A DNA stretch of 64,000 bases, taken from positions 64,001-128,000 of the IMG/VR virus record IMGVR_UViG_3300009716_000731. One strand, 5' to 3'. Shown here piece after piece: positions 8,093 through 61,849 of this stretch; position 1 is the first letter of the stretch, and each line of letters starts with the position of its first letter. Position numbers and translations under genes: made by a program. The notes beneath the pieces are model-generated. The model was not told the origin of the DNA. It saw nothing but the letters and a program-made list of their open reading frames with translations, and ran no database searches. Source of the stretch: a virus (taxonomy: Duplodnaviria; Caudoviricetes).

Positions 8093-10303
8093 TTATTTAC
8101 CAAACCAACTATTGTTATTGTTTCTTGATTTGTTTATATATTGTCTTCTAACTTTTAATAATTGACTATAATCTACTGTTTCTGAGTATTCTAAGCTTCT
8201 TAAACACTCATTTACATATGTTTTGAAGTTTGAATCTTTATCCAATAAATCTTCACACATTTCTTTGAAGTCATTCTTATTAAATACTGATGTAGCATTT
8301 ACAATTGTCATAACACAGTCGTCATGTCCAACATCAGCAGCATATCTAGTATTACCAGATGTCGTTGTTTGTTTAACAAAAGTTGTAATTTCTCTAATCG
8401 TTTCTTCATTATTGATAGAAAATCCTTTAGAAATCATCAAATCTTGATAATCTTTAACCATCATATTTTTATTATCCCCAACTTTTAGACCAACTTTTTC
8501 TTCGGTTGCATCAACTCGATGTTTATATCTAAAGAATATAGAAGAACCATAATCATTATTCCCATCAAAAACATGTGGCATCTCTGCTAAAAGAGTATTA
8601 CCATAGTTATTTAACTCTAAAACAATCTTTACATTTTCTGGATTTAAGTAATCATAAGCTAAAACATATAATAATTCAGCTAGCTGTTTAACTGATACTA
8701 AGTTACTTCTAAATAAACCAACTTGCTCTAACCTAAAGAAATCTGTTATTGACTTATATTTCATTTTTTGTTGCTCAATTAGATCAGTTGACTTTTTGAC
8801 AAGCTTAAATATATTTATAATAGAGTAATCTTGTCCTAAACCTTCTGATATATCGACTGAAAGTATAAATTTTTCATTTTTTCTATTGATAGGCATAAAT
8901 AAATCATCATCATCTACCCATCTTAAATCTTTATAACTAAATCTTAATTTACTTTCAAACTCATGCATTTCTTCAAATACATAATTCTTTTTACTATTAA
9001 GTAAGTTTTCAATTATCGCTTCACTTAGTAATGATTTACTTGAGTTTATAAATCTCAAACCATATTCTTGGTTGAATGCATCTTCACCACCAATATCTTT
9101 AATAGCTTCTTCTTTCCAAGTTGTTAGCTCTGCAATAGCTCTAATTGGTGTTTCTAATCCTTTTGAGTCTATGAATGATAAAGATTTTACATCTTCGTCA
9201 GTACATTGTTCATTGTTAAATACAGAAATTACATTTTTTTGTAAATCCATATTAAATCCCATTTTTAATTTAGTTTTATCACCAAAGTAACCATTTACTA
9301 AATCATATATATGTTCTTTTGTTACGCCATATTCATATAATTTATGTTCATTTAATCTTATGTAAGTAACAAAACGACCAGGAACTTGATGCCAATAAAC
9401 CCTCATTGGTTTATAGTTGTTTTTAAGTGGATCACCATCTGGTCTTTCTGCATCGGTTAGTAACTTATGAAATAAGTTCATACCGTTTGGTGTGGAAGTA
9501 ATAATAATTTTTGAGTTTTGTACCGCTGATACTGTTGGAAAAGCAGCAGTATAGTAAGGTTCAATAATATTTGAAGGAATGTGAGCAAACTCATCAAGAT
9601 AAAGTACGTCAATCGTAAAACCGATCGCAGGAGTTTTAGATCTTGCTGATGTTTTTATTCTACAACCATTCTCAAATGTTAGTGATTTTTGATTCCAAGT
9701 TTTAATTCCTGGTTTTAAGAAGAAAGGTAAAAGTGTATAGATTGATTTAATTTTATCAACAATCTCAACTGCTGTATCACCTTTATTCGCCACAATCATT
9801 ATATTTTTATCATTGTTAAATAAGATTGTATGCAACATGAATATTGCTGATGAGATAGTATTGTGTGATAAAATACCATTTGTGAAAAATCTATGATTTT
9901 GATGATCCACAGTTAAGTCAAACATAGAAGACTTAAAACTATCTCTATGTATAGAGATCACTTCTTGTATACCATTTTCTGTTTGTATTAAGTTACCTAT
10001 TGTTAAATTTTTGGTAAATATCTCATTGAATTTTTCATCAAATAGTATATGATTATCCGCACATGATAATTCAAAATCTTTGGTTTTCACTATATAATGT
10101 CTATATGGTTGTGTTATATGTATATTTGATACCTGTTCATAACCAGTATCAGTTTTAACCTTCATGTCCATTGTGGACAGTGAATTTAATATCTTTTTAG
10201 ATATATCATCCTCATTTAGTGATATATCTCTATATTCATATTTTTCTATTAAAAAAATTAACTTCTTAATTGTAAATATTAAGAGTTTTTTAATATTAAA
10301 CAT
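8093..10303 (-). CDS. terL: terminase large subunit, C-terminal part, preceded by C-half of a split intein
   Basis: First 148 aa end in FDLTV...TNGILSHN, then T+1; Walker B LYLDEFAH, ITSTPNG, nuclease SVDISEGLGQDYS, GHDDCVM. Confidence 0.93.
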   Translation of the reverse strand: MFNIKKLLIFTIKKLIFLIEKYEYRDISLNEDDISKKILNSLSTMDMKVKTDTGYEQVSNIHITQPYRHYIVKTKDFELSCADNHILFDEKFNEIFTKNLTIGNLIQTENGIQEVISIHRDSFKSSMFDLTVDHQNHRFFTNGILSHNTISSAIFMLHTILFNNDKNIMIVANKGDTAVEIVDKIKSIYTLLPFFLKPGIKTWNQKSLTFENGCRIKTSARSKTPAIGFTIDVLYLDEFAHIPSNIIEPYYTAAFPTVSAVQNSKIIITSTPNGMNLFHKLLTDAERPDGDPLKNNYKPMRVYWHQVPGRFVTYIRLNEHKLYEYGVTKEHIYDLVNGYFGDKTKLKMGFNMDLQKNVISVFNNEQCTDEDVKSLSFIDSKGLETPIRAIAELTTWKEEAIKDIGGEDAFNQEYGLRFINSSKSLLSEAIIENLLNSKKNYVFEEMHEFESKLRFSYKDLRWVDDDDLFMPINRKNEKFILSVDISEGLGQDYSIINIFKLVKKSTDLIEQQKMKYKSITDFFRLEQVGLFRSNLVSVKQLAELLYVLAYDYLNPENVKIVLELNNYGNTLLAEMPHVFDGNNDYGSSIFFRYKHRVDATEEKVGLKVGDNKNMMVKDYQDLMISKGFSINNEETIREITTFVKQTTTSGNTRYAADVGHDDCVMTIVNATSVFNKNDFKEMCEDLLDKDSNFKTYVNECLRSLEYSETVDYSQLLKVRRQYINKSRNNNNSWFGK
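9860..10303 (-). other. split intein C-fragment (148 aa)
   Basis: Block B-like CADNH, block F FDLTV, block G SHN followed by Thr. Confidence 0.9.
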
Positions 10304-11267
10304 TTTTTAATTGTTTCTTTTTTAGTATAAAATTAACAGTTTTAAGAATTGTTAATTCTTTATTATTGATATATTCTTTTTCACTAATATGTAATACAGT
10401 GTAACCTGATTTTTTAATATTTTCATCTCTTCTTCTTTCTCTTTCTTTATTCTCTGTTGTATTTCTATGATAATAAGTCCCATCAAATTCTAAAATTAGT
10501 TCTAAGCTAGGAATGAAAAAGTCCGGTAATATATATGATTTATTCAGTTTTAGTCTATATTCGTAGTTTTTTTTGCTATCATGTATATTATTATCATTAT
10601 CAAGTTTCGCAAAATATACCTTATCCGTAAACCCAATATTTAATAGTTCTTTATAAATGTTAATAAACAATTCTTGACTTATTTTGCTGTAGTTTACCTT
10701 TTGGTAATTATTTAACCATTTTTCTTGTCTATCCATCCATCTTTTGTATCCATCAACTTCACCATATTTTTTAATACATTTCTCAAGAGTAAATGTTGAT
10801 TGTCTTTCGCTAAGCATTTTCTTAGAAGTTTCTTCATCAAATCCTTTATCTAGATAATATTTTAATGTTGTATTAGAAACCCTATCTTTAATTATATCTT
10901 TTACAAAAGAACTTATATGTTCTTTTGTATTTTCAATTTCTTTATAATTAATAAAATCTTTAGAAAAGGGACTTCTACTTTTTCTTTCTATTTCAGTAGT
11001 GTTATTTTTATGATTAGGATTTTTTTCTCCTTTTATCTTTTCTGAAAACAAGTTCTTGTATTTTTCTGTTTTCATATGTTTTCCTGAATTTTTAGCAGTT
11101 TTTTCTTTATCTGATGATGTCATTATTGGTGCATTTGGATATAGTTTTTTATATTCATCTGTTGTCATATTATTGTGACTAAATTTTAGATGTCTGCCAT
11201 AAATTCTTTTACATTGCTCACCACATATCCTACAAGTTATACTATCAGTTGTATCTTTTATTTCCAT
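10296..11267 (-). mobile_element. free-standing homing endonuclease (Zn finger + Vsr/DUF559-like PD-(D/E)XK domain)
   Basis: CRICG..HLKFSH, KGEKNPNH, PDFFIPSLELILEFDGTYYH; lies between the two terL halves. Confidence 0.8.
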
Positions 11268-11296
11268 AATTTATTTTTTATTTATATATTAAATAT

Positions 11297-11836
11297 TTAT
11301 GGCTTCCTTTCAGGTTGGTTAATGTTTTCTAAATAAAATAAAATATCATATAACTTTATTTTGACTTTTTCTAATAAAGAAAGTTTTCTTTCTTGTTTTA
11401 ATATATAATAATATAGTTTACCTACTCTGAAATCAATTTGAATTCCATTTTTTTCTATACTACATATTGAATTAAATGAAAAACATTTTCCAACTTGCCT
11501 ACTCGCCATTAAGATATTAAATCTATTTTTTACAAAGTTTTCTAGTATTTCTTCTTGATAATCTCTTAGTTGTATATGATCAATTGAACCATCTTCTGTT
11601 TTTACCTTACAGTACTTTTCTGTGAAGTAATCTACGTTTAAGGCACATTTTATATATTCTTCTTGTTCTTCTGGTGACATTCTAAAAGAAACACCAGCTC
11701 TTCTCAAACCTACTTCGGACTTTAACCAAGGGTTCTGAAACCTCTTAATAACTATACCGTCATTGATCTTATCGGTTGCTTCATCAACAAGTCTAGTAGT
11801 AAAGACCATTTGTCTTTCTTGTTCTTGTTTAGCCAT
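11297..11836 (-). CDS. terL: terminase large subunit, N-terminal part, followed by N-half of a split intein
   Basis: LRDYQEE Q-motif, Walker A ASRQVGK directly followed by Cys1 (CFSFNS); start MAKQEQ at 11836. Confidence 0.92.
   Translation of the reverse strand: MAKQEQERQMVFTTRLVDEATDKINDGIVIKRFQNPWLKSEVGLRRAGVSFRMSPEEQEEYIKCALNVDYFTEKYCKVKTEDGSIDHIQLRDYQEEILENFVKNRFNILMASRQVGKCFSFNSICSIEKNGIQIDFRVGKLYYYILKQERKLSLLEKVKIKLYDILFYLENINQPERKP
11300..11485 (-). other. split intein N-fragment (62 aa)
   Basis: Begins with Cys immediately after Walker A lysine. Confidence 0.85.
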
Positions 11837-11905
11837 AGGAGTATTTATTTTTTTATATATATTGTAAAAAACCATCTACATATGTCAAAACAAGAACAAG
11901 AAAGA
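11813..11905. repeat. inverted repeat spanning the terL-N and terS start regions
   Basis: TCTTTCTTGTTCTTGTTT (11813-11830) is the exact reverse complement of AAACAAGAACAAGAAAGA (11888-11905). Confidence 0.9.
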
Positions 11906-12505
11906 ATTAGATTACAAGATGAGTTCGATCAAATACAATCAGAAAACTCTGAATTTGATATATCAAAGCACTTAGCAAGACCTGAGGATTTACCTGATTT
12001 AGGTGAAATTGAGCTTTATGATTACGATGCTGATTTAACTGTTTCGATGCAACAATCAATGGGTGTATTGGAGTCGTTAGTTGATTTATATTTAAGTGAT
12101 ATACCTAAACTTAAAGATCACAATTATATAAAAAATAAAATGCGTGAAGATGCTACTGTTTATGCAGAAGCGCTTTTTTTAGCTAAAATGACTAGAAAAA
12201 ACTTTTTATCACAATTAAAACAAGTTGATAATGGTGATAATGCTGCTAGAATGCACGAGGTTGTCAATCAAACAATTGGTCAGATTAGAGAGAATAGTAA
12301 ATTCCTTTTAACACAAAGAACTGAACTTGAAAAGTTTTATAAGACTTTAAGAAAAGACTTAGGTTATAATGAAATTGAGAATCCAGAAGTTAAGAAAGCA
12401 GAAGAACAACAAAATTCAGAAGAAAGTAATGATGGAATGGTTATGGATAATAGAAAGCTTAATGATTTAATTAAGAACGCTATGGTTAAAAAAGACGAGA
12501 AATAA
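11882..12505 (+). CDS. terS: terminase small subunit (T4 gp16-like)
   Basis: ARMHEVVNQTI resembles gp16 PRxxEV motif; helical; C-terminal DNRKLNDLIK; divergent from terL; ATG at 11882. Confidence 0.7.
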   Translation: MSKQEQERIRLQDEFDQIQSENSEFDISKHLARPEDLPDLGEIELYDYDADLTVSMQQSMGVLESLVDLYLSDIPKLKDHNYIKNKMREDATVYAEALFLAKMTRKNFLSQLKQVDNGDNAARMHEVVNQTIGQIRENSKFLLTQRTELEKFYKTLRKDLGYNEIENPEVKKAEEQQNSEESNDGMVMDNRKLNDLIKNAMVKKDEK

Positions 12506-12506
12506 T

Positions 12507-12617
12507 ATGCCACTACCGCATTATCCCAATCCACAGGGATTTAATTGGAGTCCTAAGTTCAAGAAAATACTTAGAATTAAGAAGATTAAGAGAATTATAG
12601 AGAAACTTGAAAAATAA
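12507..12617 (+). CDS. 36-aa peptide: tail-tube-like N-terminus plus RxxKIxxII tag
   Basis: MPLPHYPNPQGFNWSPKFKKILRIKKIKRIIEKLEK*, starts 1 nt after terS stop; not in ORF track. Confidence 0.6.
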   Translation: MPLPHYPNPQGFNWSPKFKKILRIKKIKRIIEKLEK

Positions 12618-13054
12618 TATTTATGTCAATTAATTTATAGTTTATCAAATTGTCACTTATTATATTTTCAGAGTCCATATCTATATTTATTCTGTTTGTT
12701 CTGGATTGATATCCTACTGTATTGGAAGGAGTTTCACAAAAAAATATCAAGTATAGTATATTCATTATTCATGAATGATATAAATGGTATAAAGTTATCT
12801 CTTATATCAAACCAGTCAAATACTTCAGTTCTGCCTGAAAATATACTTTTATTACCTTTAGTTATTTTTAACTTATAGATATTGCTAGTAATGTTATTTA
12901 TTGATTTAGCCTTTATCTTAGCTTCTGATGTTCCCCAGCTATTAACATCTATGTTAAAATCTTCGTCTATTAAGCTAGCGAGTAAATCACTAAATAATGA
13001 TTGAAGATCTTTTTCAGTTTCTGTATTTTCGTTAAAATTTCTTAAATAAATCAT
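12595..13054 (-). CDS. tagged protein (MIYLRNFNEN), apparently frameshifted in a T7 run near 12741
   Basis: As given stops at 12734; removing one T continues the frame to a stop at 12595; resembles 15067..15567 in layout. Confidence 0.55.
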
Positions 13055-13892
13055 AATGGAAGCTTTCAAATTTTCTAACAATATTTCTCCATTGAAGTTC
13101 AACTTTAGAATCAATGAATATGTTTGCTTTATTGAATGTTACTTGTTTTATAATAATTTCACACTCTTTATCTTTTATTGTGGTTCTTATTTGTTCTTTA
13201 AGTGCTTCTTCGGTATTATTTACTAAGAAGTGAAGAGTATCGTTTGCATTCATTAGCATTTTAACTGTATTAGCATCATCTTCATATAAAGTAACTCCGT
13301 CATATCTTTCTACTTCTTCATTAATAAACTTATTATCTTCTATCTTTAGACCAATTAAAAACTGAAGAAGTAATTTTGTTTTAGCATTTACAATCTCTGC
13401 TTTATCTTTATTATAGAATGTTTCAGAAATAAAGAAATATTTCTTTATAGAAAGACCAAGTTCTTTTATCTTATCTTCAAGTTTTTCAATTATTGGTTCA
13501 TAAGCTTTTTTACTATTCTTTGAACAAATAATAAAAATATCATCTTGTGTATTTTTTAAGTGTCTAATATTTTCAATATGTATTTGATAGTCACCTTTTT
13601 CTATTATTTCTGGATTCATAAACTCTTGCATAGAAAATGCTAAATCCGCAATATTAGCTTTTTTATTTTTACAAGATACCTTTAGATTATTATAAATTTC
13701 TTCACTAATCCAGTAATCGTTACCTGATAATTTAATCTTAATATTAAAGTTTTTATAAACACCTTTCTTAATTAAATTAAACTCATGTTTTGAGATTCTT
13801 AATAATGGCGTATTTGGATTAGTATTTTCTACAATCCAAACTTTACTATTTATTGTAATTAAAGTATTTAAGTCAAAAAAGTGAGCATTCAT
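13032..13892 (-). CDS. hypothetical protein, degenerate HAD-like fold; tag-like motif at C-terminus
   Basis: FFDLNTL, ICSK, LYEDD; ends IVRKFESF. Confidence 0.6.
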   Translation of the reverse strand: MNAHFFDLNTLITINSKVWIVENTNPNTPLLRISKHEFNLIKKGVYKNFNIKIKLSGNDYWISEEIYNNLKVSCKNKKANIADLAFSMQEFMNPEIIEKGDYQIHIENIRHLKNTQDDIFIICSKNSKKAYEPIIEKLEDKIKELGLSIKKYFFISETFYNKDKAEIVNAKTKLLLQFLIGLKIEDNKFINEEVERYDGVTLYEDDANTVKMLMNANDTLHFLVNNTEEALKEQIRTTIKDKECEIIIKQVTFNKANIFIDSKVELQWRNIVRKFESFHYDLFKKF

Positions 13893-15066: not shown

Positions 15067-15567
15067 TTACATAATTTTTATTATAAAGTAAATGCTATCA
15101 ACTTTTTTACTATCTTTTAACTCTTCAAAATCTTCTAATTTTATTTTAGTTATTTCTTTATCTTCTGTAAATTTAATTAGATGCTCAACATCATCATAAG
15201 TTTTCTCAATTAACTGTATAATTAAACTTATAAAGTCTTTTACTTCGGATATTTTTATTGATTCACCATCTTGTCTTGTAATTTTAACTTTATAAATAGT
15301 TTTATATTTACCTCTATTGATATCCTCTTCATCTTTATAAACATCACTTTCATTAAAAATAACATTTATGTTATAAACATCATCATCTGATTTATATCTA
15401 ACATTATTTTTGATAAGTTTAGACATTTCTAAATCTGGGAAATCATCTGATAATTGAGGTTTTAACTCTAAAAGTAAATTAGCTAGATCTAGAACATCTT
15501 GAGTATCAAGATCTTGATCTTCCTTAATTTTACCGGAGAATTTCTCGAATGCTTTTATAATTTTCAT
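15067..15567 (-). CDS. tagged hypothetical protein (MKIIKAFEKF)
   Basis: ORF track; TTATATATA box upstream; terminator 15040-15067 downstream. Confidence 0.7.
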   Translation of the reverse strand: MKIIKAFEKFSGKIKEDQDLDTQDVLDLANLLLELKPQLSDDFPDLEMSKLIKNNVRYKSDDDVYNINVIFNESDVYKDEEDINRGKYKTIYKVKITRQDGESIKISEVKDFISLIIQLIEKTYDDVEHLIKFTEDKEITKIKLEDFEELKDSKKVDSIYFIIKIM

Positions 15568-25346: not shown

Positions 25347-25809
25347 ATGAAATACATTAAATTATTTGAGAATTTTGGTGCTGTTAACCCAGAGTTAGTA
25401 AAAGCATTAAAAAAAATTGTTTTTTCTTATAAGAGTGAATTATTAGGGGAAAATGCACATCCATCAGAAGATTTTGGTGATGGAAAAGTTTTAATGAAGC
25501 TTATTGGAACTTTAATTAAAGCAGGTAATCATGATAATAGAATTTGTTCTATTTTGAGAGAATATGCTTTGTTATGTGAAGAAGATTCAGAAGGATCTAT
25601 TGTACATATACCTGAATATATTAGTGATGATGATTGTAATTATATTGCTGATTTTTTAGGTTTAGAAAGATTAGATTATTATTCAGATTGGACTAATGAA
25701 GAAGAAGATACTTGGGGCACTGATTGGTAAAATTTCTAGTGAAATAGGATCACATTTCTTTGGAAAAGATGGTAGCAGACATGTTGGCACAAAAAGATTT
25801 GGGATGTAA
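25347..25809 (+). CDS. tagged protein (MKYIKLFENF), apparently frameshifted at a G4 run (25714-25717)
   Basis: As given stops at 25730; removing one G reads on (TWALIGKISSEIG...RFGM*) to 25809, just before a terminator. Confidence 0.6.
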
Positions 25810-27101: not shown

Positions 27102-27136
27102 ATAATAAAAGCCACTTTTTAAGTGGCTTTTATTAT
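27102..27136. terminator. bidirectional intrinsic terminator
   Basis: AATAATAAAAGCCACTT-ttt-AAGTGGCTTTTATTATT between convergent genes. Confidence 0.8.
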
Positions 27137-27756
27137 TAATATCCAGAAACAAGTGGTGGATTAATTGTAAATTGATTATCAATGTATTCATCAATGAAGT
27201 AGTCATAAACAAAATCAGCTTGTAGTGATTCTATAATATTGTTTTGAGACCAATCCATAGTATAACCTTGTAACTTAGTAATTTGACAGTTTTGGAAAGT
27301 AACTCTTCTTAAAACAACACCTTTTTTATCGTGTTGATTAACAATAATAGTACCGATAATATCACTTTTATAGTGAAGAGCACCATTTTGAGAGTTGAAT
27401 ACTAAGTCATACCATGCTTTCATAGTATTCCAGTTCTCCATAGAACCTTGTTGATTAACATTCACTTGGAAAGGAATTGATAATACACCAGAGGTTTTAG
27501 TTGGAGTAGTAACAAACTCTCTTGTAGAGTATTTGAATCTTTGTTGTTTAGTTACAACGTCAAACTCTGTTAAGTTAAGATCAATCTTAGTTGAGTTTTG
27601 TAGCAATAAAATTGGATCTCTACCTTGTGCTTGTAAGATAACAGGTAAAATAAATGTTATCTCAAAAAGGTTAGTATATACAACTTCATCAGGTAATGTA
27701 CCTGGTCCTCCAGGTGAACCTACGCCTTGTAATTGAGTAAAATGAGGTAAGGGCAT
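27136..27756 (-). CDS. tail tube protein (gp19-like)
   Basis: NLFEITF, WYDLVFNSQNG..YK, DKKGVVLRRVTFQNC, F.YDYF; late boxes upstream. Confidence 0.8.
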   Translation of the reverse strand: MPLPHFTQLQGVGSPGGPGTLPDEVVYTNLFEITFILPVILQAQGRDPILLLQNSTKIDLNLTEFDVVTKQQRFKYSTREFVTTPTKTSGVLSIPFQVNVNQQGSMENWNTMKAWYDLVFNSQNGALHYKSDIIGTIIVNQHDKKGVVLRRVTFQNCQITKLQGYTMDWSQNNIIESLQADFVYDYFIDEYIDNQFTINPPLVSGY

Positions 27757-27845
27757 AATTATATAGATTATTTTTTATAAAAATATATATTAATAATTTT
27801 TATTTCTCTAAGTATATATTTATTTCTAAAAGTCATTTTTTTCTA

Positions 27846-28646
27846 TTATATGCTTTTGAAGAAGCCTTTTTTATATTTAATATTATTTTTTTTGCAAAAA
27901 TTATATATTTTTCTCCAATGACAATCAAATATTTTTGAAATATCTAATATATTTAATCCGGAATCAATTTTGTTGGTTAACTCCTCTATTGATATTTTTG
28001 ATCTGTTGCTATTATATTTAACACCGGTATCTAATATTAATTTACATTTATCAAACTTTCTTTTAAGACCAATTTCATAATTATTTGGATATAAAAAGTT
28101 ATATAATTTTTTTATCTCATCATATTTTTTTATTCTTATAAATGAACTTTTATTACCATTTTTACTCTCAACTTTTCTTATTTCATATTGTCCTATGTTT
28201 ATTTTATCAAATAAGTTAATCATGTGTGACCAATCTTGCTCAAACGATGAGGTTATATAAAATTGCCTAATTCTATTCTTCTCATTAAAATAAAAACAAC
28301 CGTCTCCATCTATTAGACCTAAGTAAAAATATCGTTTTAAACTATCTGGTATTATTTCTAATAATAGTGTTGGTGAGTTAGTACTCTTACTTATGTAGTA
28401 TTTAGAGAAAAATGAATCATATATCTTTGTATTGCAGAAATATATTGTCTTTTGAGGTCTTCTATTTTTTCTATGTCTATCTATAGTGCATATTTTTAGA
28501 AATTTTACTTCCTTTATGTTATTTACTATTGTATCTGCATCATCCTTTAATATCTCTATTCCTATTCTATTTCTCTCAATAAAGCCGTCAGACCATAGAA
28601 ATCCTAAAAAATAAACAAAATTTTTATCATATTCTATCATAAACAT
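27846..28646 (-). mobile_element. free-standing LAGLIDADG homing endonuclease with C-terminal HTH
   Basis: YFLGFLWSDG and FYLGLIDGDG motifs, LKRK. Confidence 0.85.
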
Positions 28647-31543: not shown

Positions 31544-32122
31544 TTACCAATAGCCGGGATATGTTTTACCACCAAATAAGTGACCATATTTATTTATTCT
31601 ACAAGCCCAATAACCTGCTTTGGTTTTATCTTTTTTCATATCGCAATTATGTCTAGCAGCAAATGCTTTTCTTGCTTTAGGATCGCTTACCTTAGCTGTT
31701 AAGCCACCGTGTACATCACCAAATGCAATTTTTTTAACTTTACCTGTTTTAGGATTTTTAACATAAACATGATACTTTTTAGTACCACCTCTCATAGGAT
31801 AATTTAGCTTAACTTCTCTTCCTTGATATTCTGCTTCATTTAGCTCTATTATTGTTTCCATTGGTAAATCCAAAGGAACTATTTGACCTTCATATTCTGC
31901 AAAGTGACCTATATCAGTGGATTCAAACAATTCTTGATCCAATTCTGATAACTCAATTTGATTACTATCAAATAGCTGTCTTGCTTCTTTGATCAAATCA
32001 AAGTATTTATTAGATCCAGGTCTGAATACATTTTCAGTAATAGACATTTTATGATCTATATGATATTGTAAATCTTCTGATATGATACCATTAAATGATT
32101 CAAATAGTTTTAAATATTTCAT
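31544..32122 (-). CDS. tagged protein (MKYLKLFESF) with basic C-terminal domain (DUF6321-like)
   Basis: ARKAFAARHNC...AGYWAC; late box 32142-32150. Confidence 0.7.
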   Translation of the reverse strand: MKYLKLFESFNGIISEDLQYHIDHKMSITENVFRPGSNKYFDLIKEARQLFDSNQIELSELDQELFESTDIGHFAEYEGQIVPLDLPMETIIELNEAEYQGREVKLNYPMRGGTKKYHVYVKNPKTGKVKKIAFGDVHGGLTAKVSDPKARKAFAARHNCDMKKDKTKAGYWACRINKYGHLFGGKTYPGYW

Positions 32123-45394: not shown

Positions 45395-45598
45395 ATGAAT
45401 ATAAATACTATTGATTTAAATGTCAAATCAATTGATATTAAAGCAGGTGTGAGAAAATTAAGAACTAAATGGACTACTGAAATGGTTAATGATTTAAGTT
45501 TTCATAGTGGATTTGGTGATATTGAACGACAATTAATCGTATCTATACGCAAGGAAAAAAGAATAAAAACTATCAATAATTTACTAAACAATATCTAA
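45395..45598 (+). CDS. 67-aa major-capsid-fragment-like protein with C-terminal tag
   Basis: IDLNVKSIDIKAGVRKLRTKWTTEMVNDL resembles gp23-family A(K/E)xRxL(K/R)AxW(T/S)xExxQDL; ends KRIKTINNLL. Confidence 0.6.
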   Translation: MNINTIDLNVKSIDIKAGVRKLRTKWTTEMVNDLSFHSGFGDIERQLIVSIRKEKRIKTINNLLNNI

Positions 45599-51630: not shown

Positions 51631-52218
51631 ATGAAAGTATGTAATGTATGTAATTTAGAACTAGATTTTAGTAAATTCTATAAGTCAACAAATAAGGATG
51701 GATTAAAGAATGAATGTAAGAGTTGCTACAATAATAAAAGATATGAATATAATAAAAATTATAAATTAAGTAATAAAGAAAGAATAGCAACTGTAAAGAA
51801 AGAATATTATTTAACTAATAAAGATTATATGATGAAAAAGCATACAGAATACTTAAATTATAGATATAAAAATGACTTATTGTTTAGATTACTCATATTA
51901 AGTAGAAGTTCTATTAAAAATGCTTTTTTAAGTAAAGGTATTAAAAAAAGATCAAAAACTATTGAGTTGATAGGTTGTTCGCTATTTGAATTAAGAAATC
52001 ACTTAGAATCAAAGTTTGAAAATTGGATGAACTGGAACAACCAAGGTTTGTATAATGGTGATTTTAATTATGGATGGGATATAGATCATATAATTCCTTT
52101 ATCATCTGCAAAAACAGAAGAAGAACTTATAAAGTTAACACATTATACAAATTTACAACCTTTATGCAGTAAAATAAACAGAGATATAAAAAAAGACACA
52201 TGGACACAGATTCGATAG
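51631..52218 (+). mobile_element. free-standing HNH-type endonuclease
   Basis: CNVC..CKSC, IGCS, WDIDHIIP, HYTNLQPL. Confidence 0.8.
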
Positions 52219-61294: not shown

Positions 61295-61849
61295 TTATAT
61301 TTCTGGATAACCAACCAAGTATTCTTCTTCTGTTGTTTCACCATCTGCTAAAGTTCTTGTGTAAATACCATCACCTAACCAATTTATCTTAGAGTTTGGA
61401 AAAATTTTCTTAACAACATTATATTCGTTTCTTTTACATCCTGTGCTTATCAAAAGTTCTGCAGGTCTTCCAGACACTTCTATCCAGAATCCTTTTTTAT
61501 GTAAAAGATTTGATAGTTGCCTCATTAGCTCTTTTCTTGCTTCTTTTGAGCCATCGTGACCCCATCCTGATATTTTATGACCGTGTGATTTTCTTGAGAA
61601 TATAACAACATCTGCATTAGGATCTCTATCTATATCAACTGCAGTCCAGAAAGTTAAATCTGGATCATTTACAACAGCATCTGGTGATGATATTCTAACG
61701 TGACCACCAAGAGGTTTATAAGCCAAATCTACAATCTCCCATATTTCTTTTTTTAGCTTAGCCCTATCTTCTATAGAAAGCTCAACCCATTGATTTTTAT
61801 CGAATAGATCAGAGAATGTAAAATCTTCAAATATTTTTAAGTATTTCAT
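61295..61849 (-). CDS. tagged hypothetical protein (MKYLKIFEDF), possibly GNAT-like
   Basis: AYKPLGG, GHDGSKEA, WIEVSG; late box 61855-61863. Confidence 0.65.
   Translation of the reverse strand: MKYLKIFEDFTFSDLFDKNQWVELSIEDRAKLKKEIWEIVDLAYKPLGGHVRISSPDAVVNDPDLTFWTAVDIDRDPNADVVIFSRKSHGHKISGWGHDGSKEARKELMRQLSNLLHKKGFWIEVSGRPAELLISTGCKRNEYNVVKKIFPNSKINWLGDGIYTRTLADGETTEEEYLVGYPEI

Follow-up and report, generated by a model that had tools for sequence, protein, structure and literature searches.

Downstream of a putative small-terminase gene of a very large phage lies a reading frame of 36 codons whose first residues resemble the start of a tail-tube-family protein encoded about 15 kb away. Is this frame a gene, and if so, does its likeness to the tube protein reflect mimicry, common descent or coincidence? 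The window considered here, a stretch of 64,000 nucleotides, is part of a 151-kb contig with 27% G+C, which is estimated to represent 26% of its genome. The ORF listing places the micro-ORF, which runs from ATG to TAA, at 12507-12617 on the plus strand. The tail-tube-family protein of 206 amino acids is encoded at 27136-27756 on the minus strand (phrog_45, E 2e-14), its first 11 codons occupying 27724-27756.

The micro-ORF is positioned tightly behind its upstream neighbour. Its ATG begins 1 nt past the TAA (12503-12505) of a gene for an acidic protein of 207 amino acids (11882-12505, plus strand), giving the junction TAA-T-ATG at 12503-12509 on the plus strand; the 36-codon frame and its spacing are thus as given in a preliminary description of the locus. 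In every micro-ORF allele, stop and start are either 1 nt apart or overlap as TAATG, the latter arrangement being found in the diverged allele of locus L124 and in a deletion derivative, L004. Small downstream ORFs in phage late operons can be coupled to the preceding gene by termination-reinitiation. The micro-ORF has such a spacing, which suggests coupling here too.

Conserved across over 80 IMG/VR loci, the 207-aa gene is divergent from the large-terminase gene. The label terS, under which it had been introduced, is a positional guess, since the protein has no Pfam, PHROG, NCBIfam or PDB sequence match; a feature-based Atlas search leads to clusters with PF11053 in 21% of their members, which is to be taken as a lead only. 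The large-terminase gene itself is fragmented in the window (8093-11875, minus strand). A 192-aa N-terminal part ending in the Walker A region is followed by a 323-aa DUF559/Vsr-like endonuclease gene, and the last piece, of 736 amino acids, has a weak intein-splicing match. The relatives carry an intact single gene for 705-712 amino acids. The divergent large-terminase and 207-aa genes open with nearly the same eight residues on opposite strands, forming an inverted repeat around their common upstream region (11813-11905).

The micro-ORF product is predicted to consist of a loose head and a basic helix. Residues 1-16 are rich in proline and aromatic residues, and the N-terminal 15 residues are modelled as loose. 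The alignment-based model shows a Lys/Arg-rich helix of 20 residues at positions 16-35 (pLDDT above 90), and the computed net charge is about +7.6. Neither Pfam nor PHROG gave a match for the product, nor was there a match in the Atlas. The beta-sandwich fold of the tube is absent from the model, which is a single helix. The C-terminal string RIKKIKRII had been regarded as a tag, an idea that has to be dropped: a six-frame translation of the contig contains neither the string nor its sub-strings at any other place, and the helix, unique within the contig, has no relative by tblastn in the window and 119 loci.

Two further observations concern basic C-termini elsewhere. A 67-aa ORF between two large genes (45395-45598, plus strand) ends in a stretch that is basic but differs from the micro-ORF tail. 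It had been proposed as the copy of a capsid segment, for which a BLAST comparison of small with large ORFs gave no match in the contig. Another C-terminal string of 11-12 residues, C-S-K-I-N-R-D-I-K-K-D-K, ends two unrelated large ORFs and is found in a 36-aa ORF (window 52180-52218; contig G000 145626-146327 and 15001-15111), and a variant is present at the end of a third large ORF.

Although first described as unannotated, the 36-aa product encoded here has already been called on public contigs from ENA, Logan and JGI. The exact peptide is found on 21 public contigs from JGI, ENA and Logan samples, two of which are 633 and 624 kb long. Among GenBank records, the nearest to the window are LR745206, which comes from a Japanese subsurface sample, and LR756502, which comes from a French lake; both represent uncultured phages exceeding 630 kb (PMC9723777). 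For the related Mar_Mega_1, a host could not be assigned (PMC9723777). Outside this lineage, an exhaustive search of 1.8 billion representative proteins gave no micro-ORF homologue. It returned one true relative, the duplicate copy P0008 described below, and three low-complexity matches in long proteins.

The genomic context was compared across 80 IMG/VR loci that were retrieved with the 207-aa gene. In most of these, the 207-aa gene directly abuts or overlaps a conserved convergent gene for 286 amino acids (13032-13892 on the minus strand in the window). Such cassette-free relatives often have a clear hairpin followed by a T-run after the 207-aa gene, at the position occupied by the micro-ORF. 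Other loci have unrelated inserts of 340-1190 nt between the two genes, and the site is, judged from its gene content, a hot spot for accessory genes. The insert of the window, of about 530 nt, was found in only one IMG/VR contig. All contigs that contain the convergent partner gene and reach the spot have a called 36-aa gene directly after the 207-aa gene. Conversely, every micro-ORF locus examined has a convergent gene of the partner family (P0001), and the micro-ORF is found in none of the ~70 related loci without the partner gene. By this co-occurrence, micro-ORF and partner are seen to form a two-gene accessory cassette, absent from ~70 related loci and deleted in one relative. In this deletion derivative (L004), five micro-ORF codons are left, joined to what remains of the oppositely oriented partner gene, its first ~22 codons; the cassette is thus dispensable and can be lost by deletion. 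A leader-bearing partner relative with 30% identity occurs in L127 without a convergent micro-ORF.

The partner gene (12595-13054, minus strand) encodes an acidic protein of 133-152 amino acids with a net charge of about -7.5, and the last 23 nt of its intact alleles, such as the 152-aa allele of L003, overlap the 3' end of the micro-ORF. In the window, an extra A in the run at 12738-12744 splits it into 12734-13054 and 12595-12765, i.e., ORFs of 106 and 56 amino acids. Seven A residues are present in the window, L126, L137 and L141, and six in all other loci. The length variant may be either a real polymorphism or the product of a slippage-prone tract, and the split form is probably real because it is also present in at least three other assemblies. 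The P0001 family comprises only six 90%-identity clusters among 5.8 billion proteins, and an alignment-based profile search found no further members. The partner model (pLDDT 70.7) has no PDB or BFVD fold match at E <= 0.001.

The N-terminal 37 and last 7 residues of the partner are nearly invariant. Its middle is highly variable: L121, L123 and L129 are 96-100% identical to the window over the 207-aa gene, the micro-ORF and the 286-aa gene, but only 57-69% identical across 12601-13000. The conserved start is shared more widely, as 24 of the 247 ORFs of at least 50 amino acids in the contig open with a leader of the partner type (M-K-Y-I/L-K-x-F-E/N...), which may be a targeting leader. Examples in the window are the ORFs at 15067-15567, 25347-25730, 31544-32122 and 61295-61849, and inserts of relatives at the same hot spot are leader-bearing as well (L009, L014, L016, L037). 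In L004 (3599-3774) and L127 (2001-3400), leucine-rich-repeat-like, leader-bearing genes adjoin truncated or distant versions of the partner, which shows mosaic exchange among leader-bearing genes.

By analogy, the partner gene locus recalls the internal-protein (IP) loci of T-even phages, where a conserved capsid-targeting leader precedes highly diverse bodies (PMC3012670). The partner gene likewise has a conserved leader, of the type found on 24 of 247 contig ORFs, and likewise combines conserved ends with a middle that is hypervariable between near-identical strains. The cassette locus also gains and loses genes among relatives, as the IP loci do. Cleavage, packaging and anti-restriction belong to the T4 side of this comparison. 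We assume that the partner leader resembles the T4 leader. To our knowledge, the T4 IP loci contain no convergent, overlapping micro-gene.

Is the micro-ORF itself a gene? Its frame is the only one of the six that is open in all three allele types (window, L124 and P0008); in the L124 allele the other five have between one and five stops each. This allele shares 44% of its amino acids and 59% of its DNA with the window allele, with flanks that are 80-93% identical. It nevertheless has 36 codons, with the first four residues, Y6 and the last residues unchanged and a helix that differs in sequence and remains basic. The third type stems from a 128-nt tandem duplication in L133 and L134, which carries the micro-ORF together with its own 17-nt upstream context. 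In the first duplicate copy (P0008), 9 of 111 nt differ, all within the first 42 nt, and the 36 codons are intact. The preliminary description had let its case stand or fall with homologous micro-ORFs in relatives; these are present, conserved and, in one genome of ~620 kb, duplicated in tandem. Nine window-type DNA alleles have 8 variable sites, five of them synonymous and shared among haplotypes and three non-synonymous, all of which are singletons. These counts correspond to a binomial p of 0.008-0.07, depending on the null and based on small numbers. The pN/pS values, 0.38/0.61 against L124 and 0.08/0.20 against P0008, are both below 1 but likewise derive from small numbers, with pS near saturation.

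An RNA element or intrinsic terminator was considered as another reading of the region and rejected: the micro-ORF region has no terminator-like site, its fold is ordinary (z-scores of -1.07 and +0.64) and it has no Rfam match.

A C-terminal extension of the 207-aa protein, produced by a +1 ribosomal frameshift near its stop, was also weighed. All alleles have the micro-ORF in frame +1 with respect to the 207-aa gene, and in the window 12 open codons precede its ATG, beside an A-rich run. The L124 allele, however, has a stop one codon before the ATG in the micro-ORF frame, which means that the micro-ORF must use its own ATG. The second tandem copy in L133 has a different sequence in the upstream frame, and the micro-ORF ATG is invariant. 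With the upstream frame not open in all alleles, this reading was rejected, and we regard it as highly improbable.

A more serious rival holds that the ORF is non-functional, i.e., sequence left over between convergent genes from the insertion of the cassette. The frame would then be open only through recent kinship and through ends that are constrained by the neighbouring genes. Most carriers are indeed 96-100% identical in their flanks, and only two alleles provide truly independent tests of ORF maintenance; from base composition, the chance that ~20 diverged codons stay free of stops is estimated at ~0.17. Moreover, the ends may be conserved for reasons other than selection on the peptide, given that the partner gene overlaps the last 23 nt and a conserved flank borders the first 18 nt. 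The middle can change almost entirely, the cassette is dispensable, as illustrated by L004, and the product has no family, fold or feature match. Yet length, ATG and frame are kept in the 59%-identical L124 allele, in which all other frames have stops, the common polymorphisms are all synonymous, and the duplicate copy has remained in frame despite 9 substitutions. In addition, the terminator hairpin of the cassette-free relatives is missing here. We consider it unlikely that the ORF is such left-over sequence, and equally doubtful that kinship and neighbouring constraint suffice to explain its open frame. On the comparison of alleles, the micro-ORF is likely to be a real translated gene, and probably a strain-restricted small gene for a basic helical peptide.

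The second part of the question concerns the tube-family protein. Its match to PF06841 is below the cut-off and its best PDB sequence match is T4 gp54; judged from these matches, it may be either the main tube protein or a tube starter of the gp54/gp48 type. It has 1233 homologous clusters, the best 120 of which are 82-99% identical. The start of the family, M-[PAG]-L-P-H-[FY]-T-Q, is nearly invariant, and positions 10-12 vary. Directly upstream of the tube-family gene lies an endonuclease gene (27757-28646, minus strand; phrog_4645), which may be a homing insertion beside the tube start. The 60 nt in front of the tube ATG differ from the conserved, AATATATA-containing upstream region of most relatives.

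Over the first 11 residues, the micro-ORF product and the tube-family protein share seven identities plus a Y/F exchange, just as first reported, and both sequences had been quoted correctly. These two starts are the only occurrences of MPLPH when the 151-kb contig is translated in six frames. An 18-nt degenerate pattern for the hexapeptide matched only the tube gene in 1.28 Mb from two complete relatives. A 15-codon ORF with a tube-like start on a contig of 41% GC (L117) was judged a chance pattern match. Across all micro-ORF alleles, the likeness that persists is reduced to M-P-[LF]-P-[HY]-Y. The tube-invariant residues T7-Q8 are not copied in the micro-ORF, and Q10-G11, at positions that are also variable in the tube family, are lost from the L124 allele.

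The preliminary description had further stated that the likeness exists at the protein but not at the DNA level, and had taken this as a sign of selection on the peptide. The codon differences that it listed between micro-ORF and tube gene are correct for this genome. The conclusion drawn from them fails once other strains are compared: over its first 18 nt, the commonest micro-ORF allele is identical to many tube alleles of other strains. In the best pair of micro-ORF and tube DNA, 30 of the 33 aligned columns match, and the alignment has two gaps of 1 nt (E 1.5e-4 by blastn against a 1-Mb set enriched for tube genes). When the eight residues were re-encoded in random draws following the codon usage of the genome, 3%, 13% and 57% of the draws for three alleles, respectively, were more alike in DNA than the real sequences; given the peptide, the excess of DNA likeness is therefore marginal. 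Since other strains have identical codons and codon bias predicts most of the likeness, the codons argue neither for nor against selection on the peptide. The reading of the two gaps as compensating 1-nt indels that prove descent at the DNA level was set aside as well, being not significant and below proof; among 9-mers taken at random from the genome, 14% come within an edit distance of 3 in a comparison of the 9-nt middle.

How easily such a likeness arises by chance was estimated from comparisons of real gene starts with small ORFs from Markov-3 simulated genomes. The observed match score was reached in 2 of 60 simulations, or ~0.03 per 151 kb, which is suggestive for a single contig and would be frequent by chance over very many windows, such as a set of roughly 250,000. 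A BLAST comparison of 102 intergenic small ORFs with 145 large ORFs of the contig revealed no further copies of virion proteins; what it found were endonuclease fragments and shared leaders. Descent or function, taken together, and chance appear about equally able to account for the likeness. If the micro-ORF is a real gene, common descent of its tube-like start and chance are again roughly balanced. By sequence comparison, the first six shared residues may thus be the relic of a captured tube-gene start or a coincidence, and they are no proof of mimicry.

A tube mimic would be a linear motif: the first six residues, displayed on a basic helix, would act as a decoy of the tube N-terminus. The three allele types share no part of the head other than the hexapeptide, which corresponds to the best-conserved stretch of the tube N-terminus. 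Elsewhere the motif is missing, both in the 151-kb contig, read in six frames, and in 1.28 Mb from relatives. There is also a precedent for an anti-defence phage protein that imitates the tail tube, namely DSAD1, which is directed against DSR2 (PMC10973363). DSAD1, from SPbeta-like phages, is described there as mimicking the tail-tube protein, occupying its binding pocket on DSR2 and trapping this NADase (PMC10973363). A phage-encoded imitation of the tube is precisely the role that was first proposed for the micro-ORF. The resemblance is in concept only, because DSAD1 as described in that source occupies the DSR2 pocket of the tube, whereas the micro-ORF matches six N-terminal residues and lacks the tube fold. 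No likeness to the tube over a folded binding surface was found, and six residues cannot copy such a surface.

Further points weigh against a decoy. The likeness is limited to six residues: T7 and Q8 have no counterpart, and Q10-G11 have disappeared from L124. The match has a p of ~0.03 per 151 kb, and the flank next to the first 18 nt is conserved to about the same degree as these nucleotides. The partner gene is represented by six 90%-identity clusters compared to 1233 clusters of the tube family, and the peptide is lacking from almost every phage that has this tube. Finally, the 206-aa protein is not certainly the main tube. We therefore consider it improbable that the hexapeptide is a displayed mimic of the tube N-terminus, and give as little credence to competition for whatever reads that N-terminus, be it an assembly partner, a processing enzyme or a host sensor. 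The more specific proposal, a six-residue decoy that is kept in a fast-evolving cassette beside the packaging genes and diverts a host sensor, or a factor of assembly or processing, from the conserved tube start that it reads, would be a long shot. The same holds for the broader one, that giant phages repeatedly make micro-proteins showing the starts of core virion proteins on a simple helix, with the peptide of the window as a minimal example. Of the original interpretation, the small gene is supported by the conservation of the ORF, its duplication in one genome and signs of purifying selection; the tube mimic is not, since only residues 1-6 are kept.

The explanation that we favour, with somewhat better than even confidence, is that the micro-ORF is a genuine but dispensable small gene in a two-gene accessory cassette with the hypervariable P0001-family gene. 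The cassette would occupy a hot spot of recombination that is flanked by the putative small-terminase gene and the conserved 286-aa gene, and would be carried by one sub-lineage of a group of freshwater 'megaphages' of more than 600 kb. Translation would occur by termination-reinitiation coupled to the upstream late gene, as the spacing suggests. The product would be a cationic helical peptide that may bind an acidic partner, nucleic acid or a membrane.

A short N-terminal likeness, together with an argument from codon differences in one genome, is insufficient to call a peptide a mimic. The N-terminal tryptic peptide of the micro-ORF would be an easy target for mass spectrometry. A hypervariable two-gene cassette beside packaging genes is the kind of site where genes of phage-host conflict are located. 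The small proteins of the largest known phages are almost unexplored, and the micro-ORF, if translated, would add a conserved peptide of 36 residues to them.
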